From Thermoanaerobaculia bacterium (GTDB taxonomy: Bacteria > Acidobacteriota > Thermoanaerobaculia > Multivoradales > UBA5704), in assembly GCA_045807625.1 (NCBI GenBank), contig JBJMHA010000012.1:76432-140431 (forward strand): a DNA stretch of 64,000 bases, read 5' to 3'. The translations under genes were made by a program, and so were the position numbers. The notes below the pieces were generated by a model. The model was not told the DNA's origin. It made no database searches and saw only the letters and a list, made by a program, of their open reading frames with translations. Of this stretch, positions 26,969-34,206 are shown piece after piece; within the stretch, counting starts at the first letter, position 1; each line of letters starts with the position of its first letter.

Positions 26969-27388
26969 ATGCCCTACCGTCTCCTCGCCGATCTCCTCGT
27001 CGCCTTCCACGCCGGCTTCGTCCTCTTCGTCGTCCTGGGCGGGCTGCTCGTCCTGCGCTGGCCGCGCCTGGCCTGGGTCCACCTGCCGGCGGCGGTGTGG
27101 GGGGCCTGGGTCGAATTCTCCTCGACCGTCTGCCCGCTGACCCCGCTGGAGAACCACCTCCGCCACCTGGGCGGGGAGGCCGGCTACTCCGGCGGTTTCA
27201 TCGCGCACTATCTGCTGCCGGTGCTCTATCCGGCGGGGTTGGGCCCGTGGGTCCAGGTTGTTTTGGGAGTTTTCGTGGTGCTCCTGAACGCCGCCGCCTA
27301 CCTGCTCGTCTGGCGGCGATCCGACCGATCCGACGGATCAGACCGATCTGACCGATCCGCGGAATCTCCGGAAGGCGAAGAGGCCTAG
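26969..27388 (+). CDS. DUF2784 family membrane protein
   Basis: LAWVHLPAAVWG, CPLTPLEN, GFIAHYLLPVLYP; tail formed by 9-bp (CCGATCCGA-like) repeats. Confidence 0.85.
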   Translation: MPYRLLADLLVAFHAGFVLFVVLGGLLVLRWPRLAWVHLPAAVWGAWVEFSSTVCPLTPLENHLRHLGGEAGYSGGFIAHYLLPVLYPAGLGPWVQVVLGVFVVLLNAAAYLLVWRRSDRSDGSDRSDRSAESPEGEEA

Positions 27389-30145
27389 AATCACCAACAC
27401 CACGCCCCCCGCGACCCACACCCACACCGGCGCTCTCCACCCCTTCCGCCCGCCCGGCAGCGGCACCAGGTCGCCGTCTCCCAGGACCACGAGGCCGGCC
27501 CAGGCGGCGGCGGGCGCGCCGTCCTGGATCATCTCGCGCTGAGCGGCCTGGAGGGCGGCGGCCACGCTGCGCCCCTTCCCGAGATGGCGGTAGAAGCGGT
27601 CGAAGAGGTCGGCGGCCTCGTCGTCGCGCAGCCGCCAGAGGCTGGCGACCACGGTGTGGGCCCCGGCCTGGAAGAAGGCGCGGGCGAGGCTCATCACTCC
27701 CTCCCCCCGCAGCATCGCCCCGGTGTTGCTGCTGCAAGCCGAGAGCACGATCACCCGCCCCTGGAGGTCGAGGTCGACGATCTCGCGGATCTGGAGCAGG
27801 CCGTCCTGGTTGGCGGCTCCGGGGGCGAGCAGCACCCCCGAGCGGTCGGGATTGGCCTCGTCGGTCACCGCGTGGGTGGCGAAGTGGAGCACCCCGAAGC
27901 GCTGGAGCGGCGTGGTCTTCACGTAGACCTCGGAGGCGTCTTCCCCCAGGCGCTGGACGCTGCCGCCGCCGAGGTCGCGCACCACGGCGCGGCTCTCGGC
28001 GCGGGCGTAGGGGAGCGGCCCCAGGCGGATGCCCGAGGCGAAGACGGCCACCGCGGCGCGCTCCCTCGCCGCGGCGGGCTGGACGTCCTCTCTTCCCGGC
28101 AGAGGGGGATCGGCCAGGGCGAGCGCCGGGACGGGGGCCACGGCCGGCCGCCGCCCCTTCCAGCTCAGCCAGAGGGTGGCCGAGGGGACCTCGGTCAGCT
28201 CGTAGCGGGTGGCGAGGGGGGGCTCCTGGGGACCCGGCCGCAGGGCGGCGAACGGGAGCTGGTGAAGGGCGTCGTCCGGCACCAGGACCAGCCGCCGGAC
28301 GCCGGGGGGGAGCTCGCGCAACGGCTGCTCCAGCAGGCGCCGGTAGAGGCCGGCGGCGGGGATGGCCTCGGAGCCGTCCCGCCGGTCGAAGGTGCCGTTG
28401 AAGAGGCGCGCCGCCGGCCGCAGCTCGCCGCGGGCCGGGAGGCGGTAGACGCGGGTGCCCCCCTGGGTGGTCACGAGGAGCCAGGAGCCGCCGGCGAAGT
28501 CCCCCCGTTCGTCCTCCCAGGAGGAGACCTGGAAGGAGAGGAGGGCCTCGTCCGCGCCGAGGGCCTGCCGCACCCGCGCCAGAGTGGCGAAGTCGGGGCG
28601 GCGGGAGGCGTTGAGGGCCGGAGCGGCGCGGGCGAGCTGGTTGCGCAGGTCCGCCTCCTGGATCTCGAGCCGGTCGAGATCGCCGGTCGCCGCCGCGCGC
28701 TCGGCCGCCGGCAGGGCCGGATCGAGCAGGCGGCGCTGCACGGCCGAGATCCGCTCGAGGACCGCCCCCCGCTTCTGCCGGATCGGGACCGCGGCGATGG
28801 GCAGAGCGTGGGCGGCCTCCAGGGTATCGATCAGCGAGCGGGCGCGGAGCCGCTCGGCGACCTGGAAGGCCCGCTCGAGATCCTCCGGCTGCTTCTCCTT
28901 CAGGGCGGCGTCGAGCAGCCGTCCGGAGAGCCAGTAATAGTCCTCGGACCAGGTGGAGAACGCCTCGGCCTGGCCGGAGGAGGCCGCCTGCTGGTCGCGG
29001 AGCGCCTCGATGGCGTCGAGCGCCGAGCGGGAATCCTCGACTGCCCGTCCGGCTCCACCGGCGGCCCAGCTCGCGCGCATCCGCTCGCGCCAGGCGAAGG
29101 CCATGGACCAGGAGTCCTGGGCCTGGCGGGCCAGCTCGATGGAGCGGTCGATCAGCTCCTCCGCCTGGCGGGGGGAGGTGGCCGAGAGGAATCGGGCGAG
29201 GCCGTTCAGGCAGTTGCTCTTGTCCTGGGCCGTATCGGCCACGGCGAGGCAGGCGTCGAAGTGCCGCCGCGCCTCCTCCCCCTTGGCCAGGATGCCGAGC
29301 AGGAGATGGGTCTTTGCCGCGATCCCCTGGTTCCGCGCCACCACGGCGGCGTCGAGCGCCATCTGGGCGAAACGCGCGGCCTGCCGCCGCCCCTCCTCAC
29401 TGGGCAGCTCCGCGGTCTGGTCGAGGACCGCCCGGGCCATGCCGTAGCGTGCATTGGCCTCGGTGTAGGGATCTTTCTTCACCGCCGCCAGCTCCGCGAG
29501 GTGCCGGAAGGCTTCCAGGCCTTCCGCGTACCGCCCCAGATCGAGGTCCAGGTTCGCCAGGGCGAGCAGGCACTCCCTCTGGGGGTTATAGGGACCGTCG
29601 GGAAACAGCGCGGGCTCCGCCTGGCGGAGCAGGAGGTAGGCCGCTTCCAGATCCTTGCCGGTCCCCCAGAGATGCCGCGCCTTGAGGACCCGGGAGCGGG
29701 CGATCAGCACCGGATCGCCGGACGCCTGAGCCGCCCGCACCGTCTGCTCGACCTGGGCTTCGGCCTCGTCCACCCGGCCGGCGTTGAACAGCAGCCGGTA
29801 AAGGTTGACGTGAGCGGACACCTCCCCCATGGCGTCTCCCCGCGCGGCGAAGCTGGCCGCCACGCGGAGGAGATCCTGCGTGGGATTGGGATCGCGATAG
29901 ATCAGATAGAAGAGGGGCCACGGGCTTCCCGGATGCTGCCGCAACAGCTCCTGGAGCCTCGCCTTGGCCTTTTCCGTCTGCTGGAGGGCCCTACCGGTCT
30001 GATCGTAGCAACCGGCCGTCTCCTCGCTCTCCGGCTGCCGGACCGCGAGCTGGTCGCAGCGATCGAAGCTGAGAAGCGCCGTGGGAGCGGCGCCGGGGGA
30101 AGGGACGGCCGATAACGCCAGGAGACACAGAAGGGCCTGAAGCAT
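27338..30145 (-). CDS. Secreted/membrane-anchored TPR + CHAT (caspase-like) protease
   Basis: Signal peptide MLQALLCLLALSA; helical repeats; LHFATHA and VLSACSS catalytic His/Cys motifs; VVASLW; C-terminal TM helix. Confidence 0.9.
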   Translation of the reverse strand: MLQALLCLLALSAVPSPGAAPTALLSFDRCDQLAVRQPESEETAGCYDQTGRALQQTEKAKARLQELLRQHPGSPWPLFYLIYRDPNPTQDLLRVAASFAARGDAMGEVSAHVNLYRLLFNAGRVDEAEAQVEQTVRAAQASGDPVLIARSRVLKARHLWGTGKDLEAAYLLLRQAEPALFPDGPYNPQRECLLALANLDLDLGRYAEGLEAFRHLAELAAVKKDPYTEANARYGMARAVLDQTAELPSEEGRRQAARFAQMALDAAVVARNQGIAAKTHLLLGILAKGEEARRHFDACLAVADTAQDKSNCLNGLARFLSATSPRQAEELIDRSIELARQAQDSWSMAFAWRERMRASWAAGGAGRAVEDSRSALDAIEALRDQQAASSGQAEAFSTWSEDYYWLSGRLLDAALKEKQPEDLERAFQVAERLRARSLIDTLEAAHALPIAAVPIRQKRGAVLERISAVQRRLLDPALPAAERAAATGDLDRLEIQEADLRNQLARAAPALNASRRPDFATLARVRQALGADEALLSFQVSSWEDERGDFAGGSWLLVTTQGGTRVYRLPARGELRPAARLFNGTFDRRDGSEAIPAAGLYRRLLEQPLRELPPGVRRLVLVPDDALHQLPFAALRPGPQEPPLATRYELTEVPSATLWLSWKGRRPAVAPVPALALADPPLPGREDVQPAAARERAAVAVFASGIRLGPLPYARAESRAVVRDLGGGSVQRLGEDASEVYVKTTPLQRFGVLHFATHAVTDEANPDRSGVLLAPGAANQDGLLQIREIVDLDLQGRVIVLSACSSNTGAMLRGEGVMSLARAFFQAGAHTVVASLWRLRDDEAADLFDRFYRHLGKGRSVAAALQAAQREMIQDGAPAAAWAGLVVLGDGDLVPLPGGRKGWRAPVWVWVAGGVVLVILGLFAFRRFRGSVRSV

Positions 30146-30185
30146 TGGAGGGAGTTTAACCCAGCGCGACAATACCCGGTGGCCC

Positions 30186-30224
30186 AAAAGGAAAACGAGC
30201 GGCTCCGGGGAACCGCTCGTTTCC
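30186..30224 (-). terminator. Intrinsic terminator after the small peptide gene
   Basis: Stem AAACGAGCGG / CCGCTCGTTT followed by TCCTTTT on the minus strand. Confidence 0.7.
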
Positions 30225-30242
30225 TGAAAGCTCTCAGGTGGC

Positions 30243-30377
30243 TTAGCCGCCGGTCGGGCCACCCGGGCCGGGGTCGCCGCCGCCCGGAACCGTGCAGCAA
30301 TCACCGGGATCCGGACCGCCGTCCGGCGACGTGGGGCCAGCGTTCATCAGGGCTTGGTTCAGCAGCGTATCCTTCAT
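30243..30377 (-). CDS. Small Gly/Pro/Asp-rich peptide (44 aa; alternative starts 30395 or 30437)
   Basis: GAGGAG RBS 6 nt before ATG; MKDTLLNQALMNAGPTSPDGGPDPGDCCTVPGGGDPGPGGPTGG; own promoter motif upstream and terminator downstream. Confidence 0.65.
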   Translation of the reverse strand: MKDTLLNQALMNAGPTSPDGGPDPGDCCTVPGGGDPGPGGPTGG

Positions 30378-30449
30378 GACCATCTCCTCGTTCATCAATG
30401 TTCGTTGATTGGGTTTCGGGTTACAGTCTCGTTTCATCCCTACAGCCGG

Positions 30450-30480
30450 TAGAACGAACCAGACCGCCCGATCCCCTCAC
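30450..30480 (-). promoter_or_regulatory. ECF-type promoter motif copy A (GTGAGGGG-N16-CGTTCTA)
   Basis: Minus strand GTGAGGGG ATCGGGCGGTCTGGTT CGTTCTA upstream of the peptide gene. Confidence 0.65.
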
Positions 30481-30573
30481 TTTGTCTGTCACTACGCATG
30501 AGTCCCAGAAAAGTTACTCCCGGTTCTCATGTAAGTCGTTGATTAGATTAGATCTGTAGGATCTCTGGCATCT

Positions 30574-30760
30574 TTGCCCTCGGTCCTGCCTGCCCTCCGA
30601 AGCCTCACCCTCGGTCCCTCTCCACTGCGTGGAGAGGGAGGGCCCTGCGATCGATGTCGTACGAGATTCGGCAGGTTGTTTCAGCCACGTTCCCCCTCTC
30701 CACGAAGTGGAGAGGGGGCCAGGGGGTGAGGATTCGGAGGGCAGGACGCCCAGAGGGCAA
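30574..30760. repeat. Composite inverted-repeat (MITE/REP-like) element, copy 2
   Basis: Same CCTCACCC/CTCTCCAC..GTGGAGAG/GGGTGAGG architecture as copies at 18976 and 47484. Confidence 0.8.
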
Positions 30761-30776
30761 GGATGTGTTGACCGTC

Positions 30777-31442
30777 TTACCTCACCGGCGTGATGAACGT
30801 CCCCGAATTCTCATGCGTGCCGTCGGGCCGGACGGCGTCCACCTGCCAGAGGAGCCGGGCGCCGGAGGGCAGGCCCTTGAGCGCGCTCTCCGGGATGCGG
30901 TACTCGGTGGCGGCCTGCCCCTTGGCCGTGGCGACGGGGCGCAGGTCCTCGGTGCTCACCTCCAGGTCATAGGAGACGGCTCCCGCGAGTGGAGACCAGC
31001 GGAGCACGGCGGCCTGGCGGGGGAGCGCCTGCCCCTCCGGGAGGAGCGAGCGGATGCCGGCGTGCTGGACCTCGCGATAGGTGGGCTCCGGCAGGGGCTG
31101 ATTCGTGCGGTAGACCCCCACCGCGATCAGCAGGCCGGCGGCCAGGGCGGCCGCGGCGGCGAGCGGGCGCCACTGCCCGAAGCGCCCCTGGATCACCTTG
31201 CCGGGCACCGTGGCGGCCTTCTCCTCGTCCCGGCGCAACTCGGCGGCGAGCCGCCAGTCCTCGGCGCAGGAGGCGCAGGCGGCGACGTGGTCCACCACTT
31301 CCCTCATCCGCTCCGGGGGGAGCTCGCCCCGCACCGCCGACCAGAGCGTCTCTGGGGTGGGGCAGCTCGCCGGGTCCGGGGCGGCGTCCGGCTCCGCGAA
31401 GGCGGCGCGCCATCGGGAGATCTGCTGGGCCTCGTTGCTCAT
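30777..31442 (-). CDS. zf-HC2 anti-sigma factor (membrane-anchored)
   Basis: HVAACASC zinc motif, single TM helix, extracytoplasmic beta domain. Confidence 0.85.
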   Translation of the reverse strand: MSNEAQQISRWRAAFAEPDAAPDPASCPTPETLWSAVRGELPPERMREVVDHVAACASCAEDWRLAAELRRDEEKAATVPGKVIQGRFGQWRPLAAAAALAAGLLIAVGVYRTNQPLPEPTYREVQHAGIRSLLPEGQALPRQAAVLRWSPLAGAVSYDLEVSTEDLRPVATAKGQAATEYRIPESALKGLPSGARLLWQVDAVRPDGTHENSGTFITPVR

Positions 31443-31538
31443 CCTTGCACCTCTCTTCCGTTCCTCATCTCGACCTCATGGTAAATCAAGGAAATCATCT
31501 CCGGTTTCGGGGCTCCTGTTTCCAGGATCACCCGGGAG

Positions 31539-31569
31539 AGAAACGATCCGGGGCCCGGAAACCCCTCAC
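31539..31569 (-). promoter_or_regulatory. ECF-type promoter motif copy B, upstream of the anti-sigma gene
   Basis: Minus strand GTGAGGGG TTTCCGGGCCCCGGAT CGTTTCT. Confidence 0.6.
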
Positions 31570-31591
31570 GAACAAGGCGGATAAGCCGGGG

Positions 31592-31622
31592 GTGAGGGGA
31601 TCGGGACCTGAGCTCCGTTCTA
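31592..31622 (+). promoter_or_regulatory. ECF-type promoter motif copy C, divergent from copy B
   Basis: GTGAGGGG ATCGGGACCTGAGCTC CGTTCTA. Confidence 0.6.
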
Positions 31623-31627
31623 TCCGG

Positions 31628-31740
31628 CGGGCCGGCCCCATCCGGTCTCTTCGGTGGCCCGGAAGGCGCCGAAGGCATCCTCAACACAGCGAGAATTCTG
31701 CCGTCTATAGCCGCCCGGGATCCCGGGCGGCCCTTTTTTC
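31628..31740 (+). ncRNA. Candidate small RNA (~110 nt)
   Basis: Lies between promoter copy C and palindrome GCCGCCCGGGATCCCGGGCGGC + CCTTTTTT (31710-31739); no ATG-initiated ORF. Confidence 0.4.
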
Positions 31741-32296
31741 AGCTCTGGATCCCCTTCGTGCCCAGGCAGCCGCGCAGGTCCGACATCCCCCGGTAGACCA
31801 GGTTCTCCGCCTTCTTGGCGGTCCACCCCAGGAGGCGGCCGATCTCGGGCACGCTGTGCCCCTGGAGATTGAGGGTCACGGCGTGGCGGCGCGGGGAGAC
31901 CATGCGGCCCAGGCAGTCGCGGATGGCGCGGCCGACCTGGCGGCCGGCCGAGGCGCGCTCCGGGTCGGGATCGGGAGCGGCGGGATCGTAGACCACCACC
32001 ACCTCCTCGCCGCTCCCCCCTTCGAGCGAGACCTCCTGGCGCCGCCGCAACCGGCGGATCTCGTCGATCATCGCGCTGTAGGCCGCCTTCTTGAGATAGA
32101 AGGCCGAAAACTCGGCCGTCCCCTCCTTCTTGCGCTGGATCTCCATCACCCGCATCAGCGCCACCTGCACGAGGTCGTCCGCCCGGTCCGCCATCCAGCG
32201 CGGGCAGACGCGGTCCACGGCGCGCACCAGGTCGCGGTGGAGCTGCGCGTAGTCCATCGGGGATTCGGGGCTTTTCTGCGGCGTATCCGTGATCAA
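31739..32296 (-). CDS. ECF RNA polymerase sigma-70 factor
   Basis: ADDLVQVAL (region 2), AYSAMIDEIRR, GHSVPEIGRLLG...ENLVYRG (region 4). Confidence 0.88.
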   Translation of the reverse strand: MITDTPQKSPESPMDYAQLHRDLVRAVDRVCPRWMADRADDLVQVALMRVMEIQRKKEGTAEFSAFYLKKAAYSAMIDEIRRLRRRQEVSLEGGSGEEVVVVYDPAAPDPDPERASAGRQVGRAIRDCLGRMVSPRRHAVTLNLQGHSVPEIGRLLGWTAKKAENLVYRGMSDLRGCLGTKGIQS

Positions 32297-32344
32297 GGCG
32301 TCCCTCCCGGCGGGCGATAGCCTACTACGAGGCGCGGGCCCTCA

Positions 32345-33229: not shown

Positions 33230-33520
33230 GATTGACCGCCGCCAGGCGCTGATACAGCGAGCCGCCGAACGCGAGCGCCGCATTGCTGCTCGCCGTTTCG
33301 CAGGCGTTCAGGACGGCGACGGCTGGAAGCGAGGAGCGCAGCAGGGCTGCGAGCTCGCGGCTGCTCAGATGGTCCTGTCCCCCTCCTCGGTTTTGAACAG
33401 GAGGGTGCCCGCGCCGGTCTTCGGATCGAAACCTCCGTGCCCCATGAAGTGCAGGACATGCACCGGCTCCGTGGCAACGGCCTCCAGCAGCGCCTTCCGG
33501 GAGCGGAGAGATGCTTGGGG
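33230..33520 (-). pseudogene. Frameshifted CHAT-domain remnant
   Basis: VHVLHFMGHGGFD...GTLLF in one frame and LAALL...AVLNACET...FGGSLYQRL in another; no start or N-terminal part. Confidence 0.7.
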
Positions 33521-33525
33521 CTGAC

Positions 33526-33924
33526 TCAGATGAAGACCGCCGGTGAGACCCTGAAGCGCCCGGCGAGTGCACGGATCTCGCCAAGGTGCCACTCCTTCTC
33601 CCCGGCAAGGACAGCGCGCACAGCCGGGGCTCCGCCGAGCTCGGGCAGGTCGCCGGGGCCGAGGCCGTGCTCTTCCATCAGATACTCCAGAACCTCGGGT
33701 CCGCTGGCCTCGGGAATGGAGACGTGCTCTTCCTCGTAGGCATGAACGAGGGTTCCCAGGATATCGAGAAACCCGTACAGCGGATGCCGGTCGTCGTCGC
33801 CAATTTCTTCGAGCAACGAGCTCAGACGGTCGACGGCAGAGGCATAGTCCTGCTCGTTGCGGATCGTCAGCAGAGGTCCGATGGCTCGCCAGTGGTCCTG
33901 TGTTTCTTTGCGCAGCGCACTCAT
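33526..33924 (-). CDS. higA: HigA-like antitoxin (HTH)
   Basis: IRNEQDY...LGTLVHAYEEEH...LEYLMEEHGL...IRALAGRFRVSPAVFI; ATG overlaps the toxin's natural stop. Confidence 0.8.
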   Translation of the reverse strand: MSALRKETQDHWRAIGPLLTIRNEQDYASAVDRLSSLLEEIGDDDRHPLYGFLDILGTLVHAYEEEHVSIPEASGPEVLEYLMEEHGLGPGDLPELGGAPAVRAVLAGEKEWHLGEIRALAGRFRVSPAVFI

Positions 33925-34206
33925 GATTTCCAAGCTCCCTGGTCGTATTCTGCGTGGGTCAGCACATGCCGGACGTAGACTCTCGCACGGTTGAAGTGGA
34001 TCGCGGCGATCAACCGGTACTTGTTTCCTCCAATGTTGAAGACAATGAGGTCCCACCCAGTCAGCGCTTGGAAACGTAGCTCTCAGCTCGTTGAAGTCTT
34101 TGAAGTCGGTCTTCCGGATAATGGTGTACCAACGGCTGAGCGGGCTCTGACTGTCGGGATGTCCCTCCCCAAATTCTCGCAGGGCCTTGCGGGAGATGAT
34201 GTGCAT
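33921..34206 (-). pseudogene. higB: HigB-like toxin, frameshifted near 34051
   Basis: MHIISRKALREF...TFPSADWVG continues in another frame as LIVFNIGGNKYRLIAAIHFN...VLTHAEYD...WKS*. Confidence 0.8.

Follow-up and report, generated by a model that had tools for sequence, protein, structure and literature searches.

A conserved ECF sigma, anti-sigma, small peptide and CHAT gene module in Thermoanaerobaculia as a candidate split counterpart of DdvA

In the SigmaE-RseA-DegS-RseP system of Escherichia coli, peptide tails activate a membrane-tethered periplasmic site-1 protease, and the single-pass anti-sigma factor is cut by this enzyme and then by a site-2 protease of the M50 family. The closest described relative of the locus presented here is DdvA of Myxococcus xanthus, a zinc-type anti-sigma factor fused to a periplasmic region of tetratricopeptide repeats (TPR) and a CHAT domain (PMC11506125; PDB 8rot, 8rw5). 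According to the available text of that study, RseP cuts DdvA that lacks its TPR-CHAT region, CHAT is proposed, though not proven, to cleave its own polypeptide, and the signal is unknown. DdvA is the only studied anti-sigma factor with a periplasmic caspase-like domain. Here, we describe a 64,000-nucleotide stretch from a Thermoanaerobaculia bacterium (contig JBJMHA010000012.1, positions 76,432 to 140,431; “the window”), which contains four minus-strand genes at 27338-32296 for an extracytoplasmic function (ECF) type sigma factor, a putative anti-sigma factor, a small peptide, and a CHAT protein, as a preliminary description of the sequence had stated. We tentatively interpret this module as a split DdvA-like system in which an exported CHAT protein would act in trans on the anti-sigma factor, a reading that we favor while placing it somewhat below an even chance. 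Site-1 cleavage in trans is favored because the parts of DdvA are present as separate genes, the CHAT protein is predicted to be anchored beside the anti-sigma linker, and M50 site-2 proteases are encoded in the genome.

The module resembles DdvA/DdvS in that an ECF sigma factor appears to be held by a single-pass zinc-type anti-sigma factor, with regulated intramembrane proteolysis and CHAT as the site-1 protease proposed in the available description of DdvA, and in that the TPR-CHAT region lies on the periplasmic side of the inner membrane (here by prediction). However, TPR-CHAT is here encoded separately and has a signal sequence and a C-terminal anchor of its own, so that one polypeptide in M. 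xanthus corresponds to two genes with the peptide gene between them. In addition, the outer part of the anti-sigma factor is a small FN3-like domain and not TPR-CHAT, a leaderless peptide that is predicted to be sigma-driven belongs to the unit, and the module is found in an Acidobacteriota lineage and is multiplied within the genome. A full-text literature search for CHAT together with anti-sigma factors returned the DdvA papers and work on CRISPR (clustered regularly interspaced short palindromic repeats) only and no description of the split form, though later ECF groups (PMC7826278 supplement) may mention it.

Other known systems share fewer features with the module. DegS is a serine protease with a PDZ sensor, whereas the candidate here would be a caspase-clan cysteine protease with a TPR-like sensor. 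The preliminary description took type III-E CRISPR as the nearest precedent, a place that belongs rather to DdvA/DdvS with its periplasmic TPR-CHAT region fused to the anti-sigma factor. The type III-E craspase (Csx29, Csx30, and CASP-sigma; PMC10028731; PDB 8eey) likewise connects a TPR-CHAT protease to the release of an ECF-type sigma factor by cutting of an inhibitor, and Csx29 is the best structural match of the CHAT protein; however, craspase is cytoplasmic and guided by RNA through Cas7-11, whereas the CHAT protein here is predicted to be exported and membrane-anchored. The module is not considered a craspase because its CHAT protein scores far below the cut-off of the NCBIfam Csx29 model (NF041237; 24.9 bits against 300), which places it outside the Csx29 family, and because of its predicted export. 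There was no cas gene among the open reading frames (ORFs) examined, where cas genes were not systematically searched for, in keeping with the CRISPR-independent cascade of the preliminary description. Separase and securin (PDB 5u1t, 7nj1) offer another parallel, namely a helical-repeat arm with a caspase-like domain and, encoded alongside or working together with it, a small acidic partner that is disordered, but they are eukaryotic and cytoplasmic, and a corresponding binding of the peptide to CHAT would here be hypothetical. Lastly, the gene context of ECF54 also includes TPR-bearing CHAT proteins, with proteolytic control suggested, although this group, in the available text of its descriptions (PMC7826278, PMC8999054), is actinobacterial only, has no anti-sigma factor, has subtilase and carboxypeptidase-like neighbors, and has another promoter motif. 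The sigma factor here falls outside ECF54 by its Acidobacteriota lineage, its anti-sigma factor, and its different neighbors.

The linkage of the module was examined from both of its ends. Around the CHAT orthologues, 26 loci were fetched, of which 23 have the sigma, anti-sigma, and CHAT genes together, while one of the remaining three stops at a contig edge. A survey independent of CHAT, in which 185,579 species genomes were scanned with the anti-sigma alignment, identified 62 loci; an adjoining cognate sigma gene lies directly upstream of the anti-sigma gene in 61 of them, and a CHAT gene lies downstream in 49 of the 55 having at least 1 kb of downstream DNA, although the two sets of loci share many genomes and their counts are not independent. 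The anti-sigma loci are mostly from Thermoanaerobaculia and include the labels Holophagales, Vicinamibacterales, Candidatus Eisenbacteria, and strain Mor1. Relatives of the module are labeled as Thermoanaerobaculia or Acidobacteriota metagenome-assembled genomes, with soil as their main source. The gene-neighborhood survey that the preliminary description had proposed as a check therefore found the linkage conserved across Thermoanaerobaculia and reaching other Acidobacteriota, and not the lack of conservation that it had named as grounds for abandoning the idea.

The same association recurs within the host genome (7.5 Mb, 70% G+C), which has 29 Pfam CHAT matches, 60 ECF sigma matches over the cut-off, and 24 zf-HC2 matches. 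A CHAT match lies within 6 kb of an ECF-type sigma match in 18 of 29 cases when three sigma matches below the cut-off are included (63 in total), or 16 of 29 with the 60, against about 3 expected by arithmetic, and the linkage of CHAT to sigma genes exceeds chance. Two layouts recur, one with sigma, anti-sigma, and CHAT, and the other with CHAT, a small protein, sigma, and anti-sigma. Most of the CHAT paralogues begin with a signal sequence or lipoprotein box and have no C-terminal helix.

The most likely start of the CHAT gene is 30145 (935 aa), because the orthologues begin at that methionine and a longer frame from 30304, which was rejected, overruns the end of the peptide gene and the terminator. 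The encoded protein matches Pfam CHAT (PF12770; 210 bits, E 5.9e-62), and both His758 and Cys804 are invariant in all 26 aligned orthologues. By its domain and catalytic residues, it is predicted to be an active caspase-like peptidase of clan CD. The AlphaFold2 (AF2) model (pLDDT 82.6, pTM 0.77) shows an N-terminal hydrophobic helix, then helical repeats (residues 28-507) and the CHAT domain (530-890), followed by a C-terminal helix (907-933), and this helical-repeat arm of ~480 residues joined to a caspase fold is the architecture of the separase-craspase type. The term “TPR-like” rests on the fold, because the TPR matches in Pfam are all below their cut-offs; of the TPR-like repeats in the preliminary description, the helical repeats are borne out by the model and the Pfam family assignment is not. 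The top Foldseek matches are Csx29, DdvA, and separase. With VIA-align, Csx29 gave Z 29.2 (range 27-29; rmsd 9.3, 522 residues aligned), the separase protease domain Z ~26 (range 23-26; rmsd 3.1-3.4, 308-323 aligned), and DdvA Z 20.6 (rmsd 9.2, 608 aligned, 17% identity).

CHAT orthologues match over their full length, with 56-81% identity in 24 same-genus genomes and 37-45% across other families of the order. Conservation is highest in the catalytic domain (77% identity within the genus and 52% outside it) and lowest in the N-terminal repeats (57% and 26%); such fast-changing repeats match the expectation for a sensor arm. All orthologues have a signal-like N-terminus, a Cys pair right after it, and a C-terminal helix followed by a basic tail of Arg/Lys, in agreement with the signal peptide, His/Cys motifs, and C-terminal anchor noted earlier. 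Based on these features shared by all orthologues, the protein is predicted to be exported and tail-anchored, with the catalytic domain near the membrane at the outer face of the inner membrane. The anchored domain would then sit beside the juxtamembrane linker of the anti-sigma factor, and the earlier placement of CHAT on the side of the anti-sigma outer domain holds as a prediction.

The putative anti-sigma factor matches Pfam zf-HC2 with 25.7 bits (cut-off 22.2). Its AF2 model (pLDDT 84) consists of cytoplasmic helices (residues 2-77), a membrane helix (94-113), a linker (114-132), and a beta-sandwich (133-221); the latter resembles FN3 domains (Foldseek E ~3e-4), and no Pfam family matched the outer part. 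An H-x3-C-x2-C motif in the N-terminal helical domain followed by one membrane helix is the arrangement of class I zinc-binding anti-sigma (ZAS) factors, and this motif is kept in 20 of 23 orthologues, as read by eye from the alignment, with three distant ones lacking it. The protein is predicted from these features to bind and inhibit the adjoining sigma factor. As a separate observation, the membrane helix (window ~31104-31163) is the best-kept part of the protein in the genus, with 78% identity against 65% for the sigma-binding domain, which hints at contacts inside the membrane.

The sigma factor matches Pfam Sigma70_r2 (25.6 bits, cut-off 24) and Sigma70_r4_2 (25.8 bits, cut-off 25.7) and NCBIfam TIGR02937 (46.2 bits, cut-off 42.9), and as a small protein with sigma-2 and sigma-4 regions only, it belongs to the ECF (group 4) sigma-70 factors. 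The three larger genes of the module are all supported by Pfam and NCBIfam matches. Sigma orthologues share 78-92% identity within the genus and 47-58% in other families, and the nearest paralogue in the genome (C46) is partnered with an anti-sigma factor of the FecR type and not with one of a CHAT module. There is no sign of an autoregulated promoter before the sigma gene, as the motif AAC-N16-CGT is absent within 350 nt upstream in all 24 loci and TGAGGGR-N16-CGTT was not found upstream in the locus census, preceding the anti-sigma gene instead. A TAGGCT-type box (Table 1) is a candidate for a housekeeping-type promoter of the sigma gene.

Before the genes for the peptide and the anti-sigma factor, and also before a putative short transcript in the divergent direction, lies a bipartite motif of the ECF type, TGAGGGR-N16-CGTT. 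It has three matches in the window, against 0.24 expected, all of which are inside the module, and 33 matches on both strands of the whole genome. Among the surveyed loci, it is present in 39 of 49 gaps between anti-sigma and CHAT genes, including loci with only 36-46% anti-sigma identity, and of the 61 gaps between sigma and anti-sigma genes, 31 have it on the coding strand and 14 on the reverse strand; where these two genes abut, it falls within the sigma ORF. The motif also precedes peptide-CHAT units that are unlinked from the sigma pair as well as second CHAT units. A second ECF-like motif, AAC-N16-CGT, occurs once per locus in 16 of 16 genus loci, ~25 nt upstream of the TGAGGGR motif, and its conservation is limited to the genus. 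With a weight matrix built from 22 loci, the module site is the best in the genome (26.3, next 21.1), although the bare pattern is unspecific, with four occurrences in 5.7 kb.

Regarding transcript ends, the hairpin beside the sigma gene is taken as the terminator of the short plus-strand transcript because its T-run is on the plus strand only. It is kept in 13 of the 15 loci having the reverse motif, while the transcript body is not conserved; in the divergent region (31593-31740, plus strand), ~90 nt separate motif and hairpin, and two loci have a small ORF there instead. The ~110-nt divergent transcript is a candidate sigma-dependent small RNA. The terminator between the peptide and CHAT genes lies 22-25 nt behind the peptide stop, and both sides of its stem change between loci. 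Beyond it, the conserved -10-like box, which resembles the one before the sigma gene, is possibly CHAT's own promoter, which would yield a leaderless mRNA. The four genes therefore share orientation but look like at least three transcription units. Judging by these signals, the sigma and CHAT genes, with housekeeping-like boxes in place of the TGAGGGR motif, would be constitutive, and the anti-sigma factor, the peptide, and the short divergent RNA would depend on the sigma factor. The peptide is read as an output of the switch because its gene and the anti-sigma gene carry the sigma-type promoter motif, and CHAT may be both a part of the sensor and, through read-through, an output.

Matches to the promoter-like motifs also occur elsewhere in the genome. 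The closest of those to TGAGGGR-N16-CGTT is followed, after ~100 nt, by the gene for a secreted alpha/beta hydrolase (Abhydrolase_6, E 1.8e-13; G000:C12:5048-6118, L157), which may be a further sigma target. A MacA/MacB-like exporter operon (G000:C102:24766-28160, L131) has AAC-N16-CGT 37 nt before its start, kept in 16 of 20 orthologues as read by eye; it was dropped as a candidate peptide exporter, its motif not being assignable to this sigma factor. A motif match before an RseP-like gene is probably due to chance, with a perfect housekeeping -10 box beside it. Small Cys-rich peptides with a double-glycine type leader are encoded at G000:C99:19181-19330, G000:C51:23956-24114, and L104:4911-5075, near the threshold of the lanthipeptide leader model (21.4 against 22 bits), and two of these are just behind TGAGGGR-N16-CGTT-like motifs, while one of the three is located upstream of a sigma orthologue.

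For the peptide gene, the most likely start is 30377 (44 aa), because a GAGGAG ribosome site lies ahead of it, and the start at 30437 (64 aa) was rejected in its favor. The peptide has a variable N-terminal part, no hydrophobic segment, and a conserved C-terminal motif, C-C-T-x-P-(P/G)-x(1-4)-D-P-G-P. Throughout the genus, a small ORF with a strong ribosome site occupies the gap between the anti-sigma and CHAT genes, and under a strict rule the peptide ORF was found in 29 of the 49 CHAT-bearing loci; these 29 peptides have Cys-Cys in 24 and P-x(2-4)-D-x-G/P-P in 22. In more distant loci, the small ORFs are longer and end with a related stretch, T-x-P-P-D-x-D-x-G-P. No Pfam or NCBIfam family matched the peptide and the ESM Atlas gave no usable match, and a profile search of 5.8 billion proteins retrieved a family of 98 clusters (35-81 aa), which are all “hypothetical” or unnamed and have no Pfam domain. 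Cys-Cys is present in 97 of the clusters, and 85 are net negative. Where the peptide and CHAT genes are located away from the sigma pair (L050, L053, and L054), they remain together, and the genetic link of the peptide with CHAT is closer than that of the sigma pair. Most likely, the peptide is a ligand, decoy substrate, or inhibitor of CHAT. A complex prediction for CHAT residues 24-905 with the peptide scored 0.02 (mark 0.32) with controls that did not fold, and speaks neither for nor against binding.

Small proteins resembling or replacing the peptide were also observed in related settings. Second, diverged CHAT copies are located downstream of the first in four loci (L055:7250-7800, L056:1300-3560, L082:9780-10500, and L085:9950-10720), and each is preceded by a TGAGGGR-N16-CGTT-like motif and a conserved pair of leaderless small ORFs (49-59 aa) that is unrelated to the Cys-Cys peptide. 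Moreover, a paralogous module of this genome, composed of CHAT, small protein, and sigma genes, encodes a 160-aa protein without a Pfam match (G000:C41:262794-263276; L156:2795-3277), which has a signal sequence and a Pro-Pro-Asp-Pro-Gly-Pro stretch resembling the peptide motif.

From the gene content, conservation, predicted topology, catalytic residues, fold, and placement of the promoter-like motifs, we infer the biochemical steps of the split DdvA-like system, namely the cleavage, its signal, the sigma dependence of the motifs, and the partner of the peptide. The sigma factor and the exported protease would be made constitutively, with the protease tethered to the inner membrane by its C-terminal helix and its TPR-like arm and caspase-type domain outside the cytoplasm, while the single-pass anti-sigma factor would keep the sigma factor at the membrane. 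The fast-evolving TPR-like arm would read a signal and switch on the CHAT domain, which would carry out the site-1 step by cutting the anti-sigma factor on its outer side, within either the short linker or the FN3-like domain. An M50-family site-2 protease and cytoplasmic proteases would then complete the breakdown of the anti-sigma factor, and the freed sigma factor would transcribe from the TGAGGGR-N16-CGTT promoters. Transcription of the anti-sigma gene would reset the switch, and the sigma factor would also drive the peptide gene, with read-through into CHAT, and the short divergent RNA.

Several observations weigh against this interpretation. No result here shows CHAT contacting or cutting the anti-sigma factor, and in DdvA, according to the available text, self-cleavage is only proposed and the His/Cys mutants behave like the wild type in unperturbed cells (PMC11506125). 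With the promoter motif in front of the unit that it forms with the peptide, CHAT would itself be an output of the sigma factor, at least in part. In 6 of the 55 loci, the sigma pair has no CHAT gene within 6 kb and is followed by other genes, and one of the CHAT-less loci has a peptide-CHAT unit 11 kb away on the same contig. A hydrophobic segment is found in none of the 98 family members and none of the 29 locus peptides, and a role of the peptide outside the cytoplasm therefore needs some export route. One soil metatranscriptome run, in which 8% of sampled words were present, covered only the CHAT 3′ part of a relative (~91% identity) and a repeat resembling repetitive extragenic palindromic (REP) elements; it gave no coverage of the peptide or promoters and so no support for the sigma dependence of the motifs. 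Finally, a weak search found no longer, fused relative of the anti-sigma factor among 8000 scored candidates, and by its sequence the sigma factor is no close relative of DdvS. For these two reasons, and because the genes themselves are unfused, the module is not regarded as a strict member of the DdvA family.

The strongest competing explanation reverses the role of the CHAT protein. The anti-sigma factor would sense the signal by way of its own FN3-like domain or of another protease, and the peptide and CHAT would be sigma-induced products, with CHAT acting on other exported proteins or on the peptide, for instance in envelope remodeling, defense, or product processing. This would fit the finding that the most deeply conserved promoter motif is the one before the peptide-CHAT unit, that it remains with this unit when the sigma pair is elsewhere, that second CHAT copies with their own small ORFs have it too, and that the best genome-wide match to the genus-level matrix is the peptide-CHAT site. 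Moreover, gene neighborhood is unable to separate a regulator from a member of its regulon. On the other hand, CHAT need not depend on the sigma factor, because a conserved terminator separates it from the peptide and it has its own -10-like box. The fused form in DdvA also places TPR-CHAT on the sensing side, and the C-terminal anchor sets the active site beside the anti-sigma linker. The explanation is considered rather unlikely but ranks second.

Another possibility, compatible with either the split DdvA-like system or a role of CHAT as sigma output, is that the peptide stays in the cell, where it would act in feedback, either on the sigma and anti-sigma factors or on the basic tail that CHAT is predicted to have in the cytoplasm, for instance as a small anti-anti-sigma factor or an inhibitor. 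The peptides have no export signal and are mostly acidic while the CHAT tail is basic, and the peptide is the first gene behind a sigma-type motif. However, it accompanies CHAT and not the sigma pair when the units separate, the signal-bearing 160-aa protein with its look-alike motif in the paralogous module points outside the cell, and the zinc ligands of the anti-sigma factor do not covary with the Cys-Cys of the peptide; we consider a cytoplasmic role improbable.

RseB and TonB-dependent transducers are precedents for a partner that acts without proteolysis. By analogy, CHAT could be a co-receptor or shield on the outer domain of the anti-sigma factor that keeps another site-1 protease away until a ligand appears. 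Arms of the TPR-like kind serve in binding, and in the available account of DdvA its bulky TPR-CHAT region sterically blocks RseP (PMC11506125), but invariant His and Cys residues in the most conserved domain of the protein are hard to explain without catalysis, and this role is very unlikely. A cis-acting leader, in which translation of the small ORF with stalling at Cys-Cys or the Pro-rich stretch tunes termination at the hairpin and sets CHAT expression, would account for the variable N-terminus, the conserved C-terminal motif near the stop, and the spacing of the conserved terminator, but is the least credible explanation and barely plausible, as a ribosome paused at the motif or stop codon would fall short of the hairpin, no alternative pairing was seen, second CHAT copies and paralogues have small proteins of 50-190 aa in the same place that cannot be leaders, and other layouts place the small ORF after CHAT.

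The split DdvA-like system could be part of a wider theme of caspase-based sensing outside the cytoplasm. Each genome would have dozens of paralogous modules, in which each exported separase-like protease is paired with its own leaderless small protein, either a securin-like decoy or a “danger” ligand released by lysis of kin, that gates the cleavage of an ECF anti-sigma factor in trans at site 1, and a sigma factor making more peptide would form a self-priming loop. This extension is speculative and, in our view, unlikely. Nevertheless, DdvA-like parts are available here as separate genes together with a candidate ligand (the peptide) and a candidate reporter promoter, and sensor, substrate, and output can therefore be varied one at a time. 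The size of the family, with most of the CHAT matches in this genome beside sigma genes, suggests that it may be a major unstudied route of environmental sensing in soil bacteria.

Table 1. Positions in the window of the genes, promoter-like motifs, and other features of the module; functions are predicted.
Feature	Position	Strand	Remarks
Predicted exported TPR-like CHAT protein (caspase/separase-type) with C-terminal membrane anchor	27338..30145	-	935 aa
-10-like box, conserved	30153..30161	-	7-12 nt before CHAT ATG; no ribosome site
Intrinsic terminator, hairpin and T-run	30186..30220	-	Between peptide and CHAT genes
Small acidic peptide gene	30243..30377	-	44 aa; strong ribosome site
TGAGGGR-N16-CGTT	30452..30479	-	~75 nt before peptide start; candidate cognate sigma promoter
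AAC-N16-CGT, second ECF-like motif	30493..30515	-	Just upstream of peptide-gene TGAGGGR motif
Long inverted repeat, REP-like insertion	30588..30746	.	In anti-sigma-to-peptide gap
Putative single-pass anti-sigma factor gene	30777..31442	-	221 aa
TGAGGGR-N16-CGTT	31541..31568	-	~100 nt before anti-sigma start; candidate sigma-dependent promoter
TGAGGGR-N16-CGTT	31593..31620	+	Points away from anti-sigma gene; transcript ~110 nt ending at hairpin
Hairpin, G+C-rich palindrome	31710..31731	+	Beside sigma stop codon; 9 pairs plus T-run
ECF-type sigma factor gene	31739..32296	-	185 aa; Pfam, NCBIfam
-10-like box, TAGGCT type	32318..32328	-	~20 nt before sigma start; 16 same-genus loci aligned

The noncoding parts of the locus contain few further elements. 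RNAalifold identified no shared structure in the peptide leader, where the conserved block is the promoter-like motif, and an Rfam search of the intergenic regions matched no family, with sub-threshold hairpin matches only for the inverted repeat. The REP-like repeat is outside the module proper; it is unique to this genome's copy of the intergenic region, and pieces of it recur in many unrelated contigs of the soil RNA run.

The genes flanking the module (HTH_36, glyoxalase, DUF2784, enolase-like, and GNAT-like) were rejected as parts of it because they are not conserved alongside it across loci. There were no genes for the cyclic oligonucleotide-based antiphage signaling system (CBASS) or CRISPR among the conserved neighbors, a comparison that covered the flanks only and was not a scan for defense genes. 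Upstream of the module, a short minus-strand frame (33365-33592) matches CHAT below threshold in the region of the His motif (17.8 bits, cut-off 24) and may be a remnant of another CHAT gene. A 226-aa ORF (33526-34206, minus strand) matches HigB_toxin at its N-terminus (29.3 bits, cut-off 27) and may be a toxin-antitoxin pair read as a single frame.

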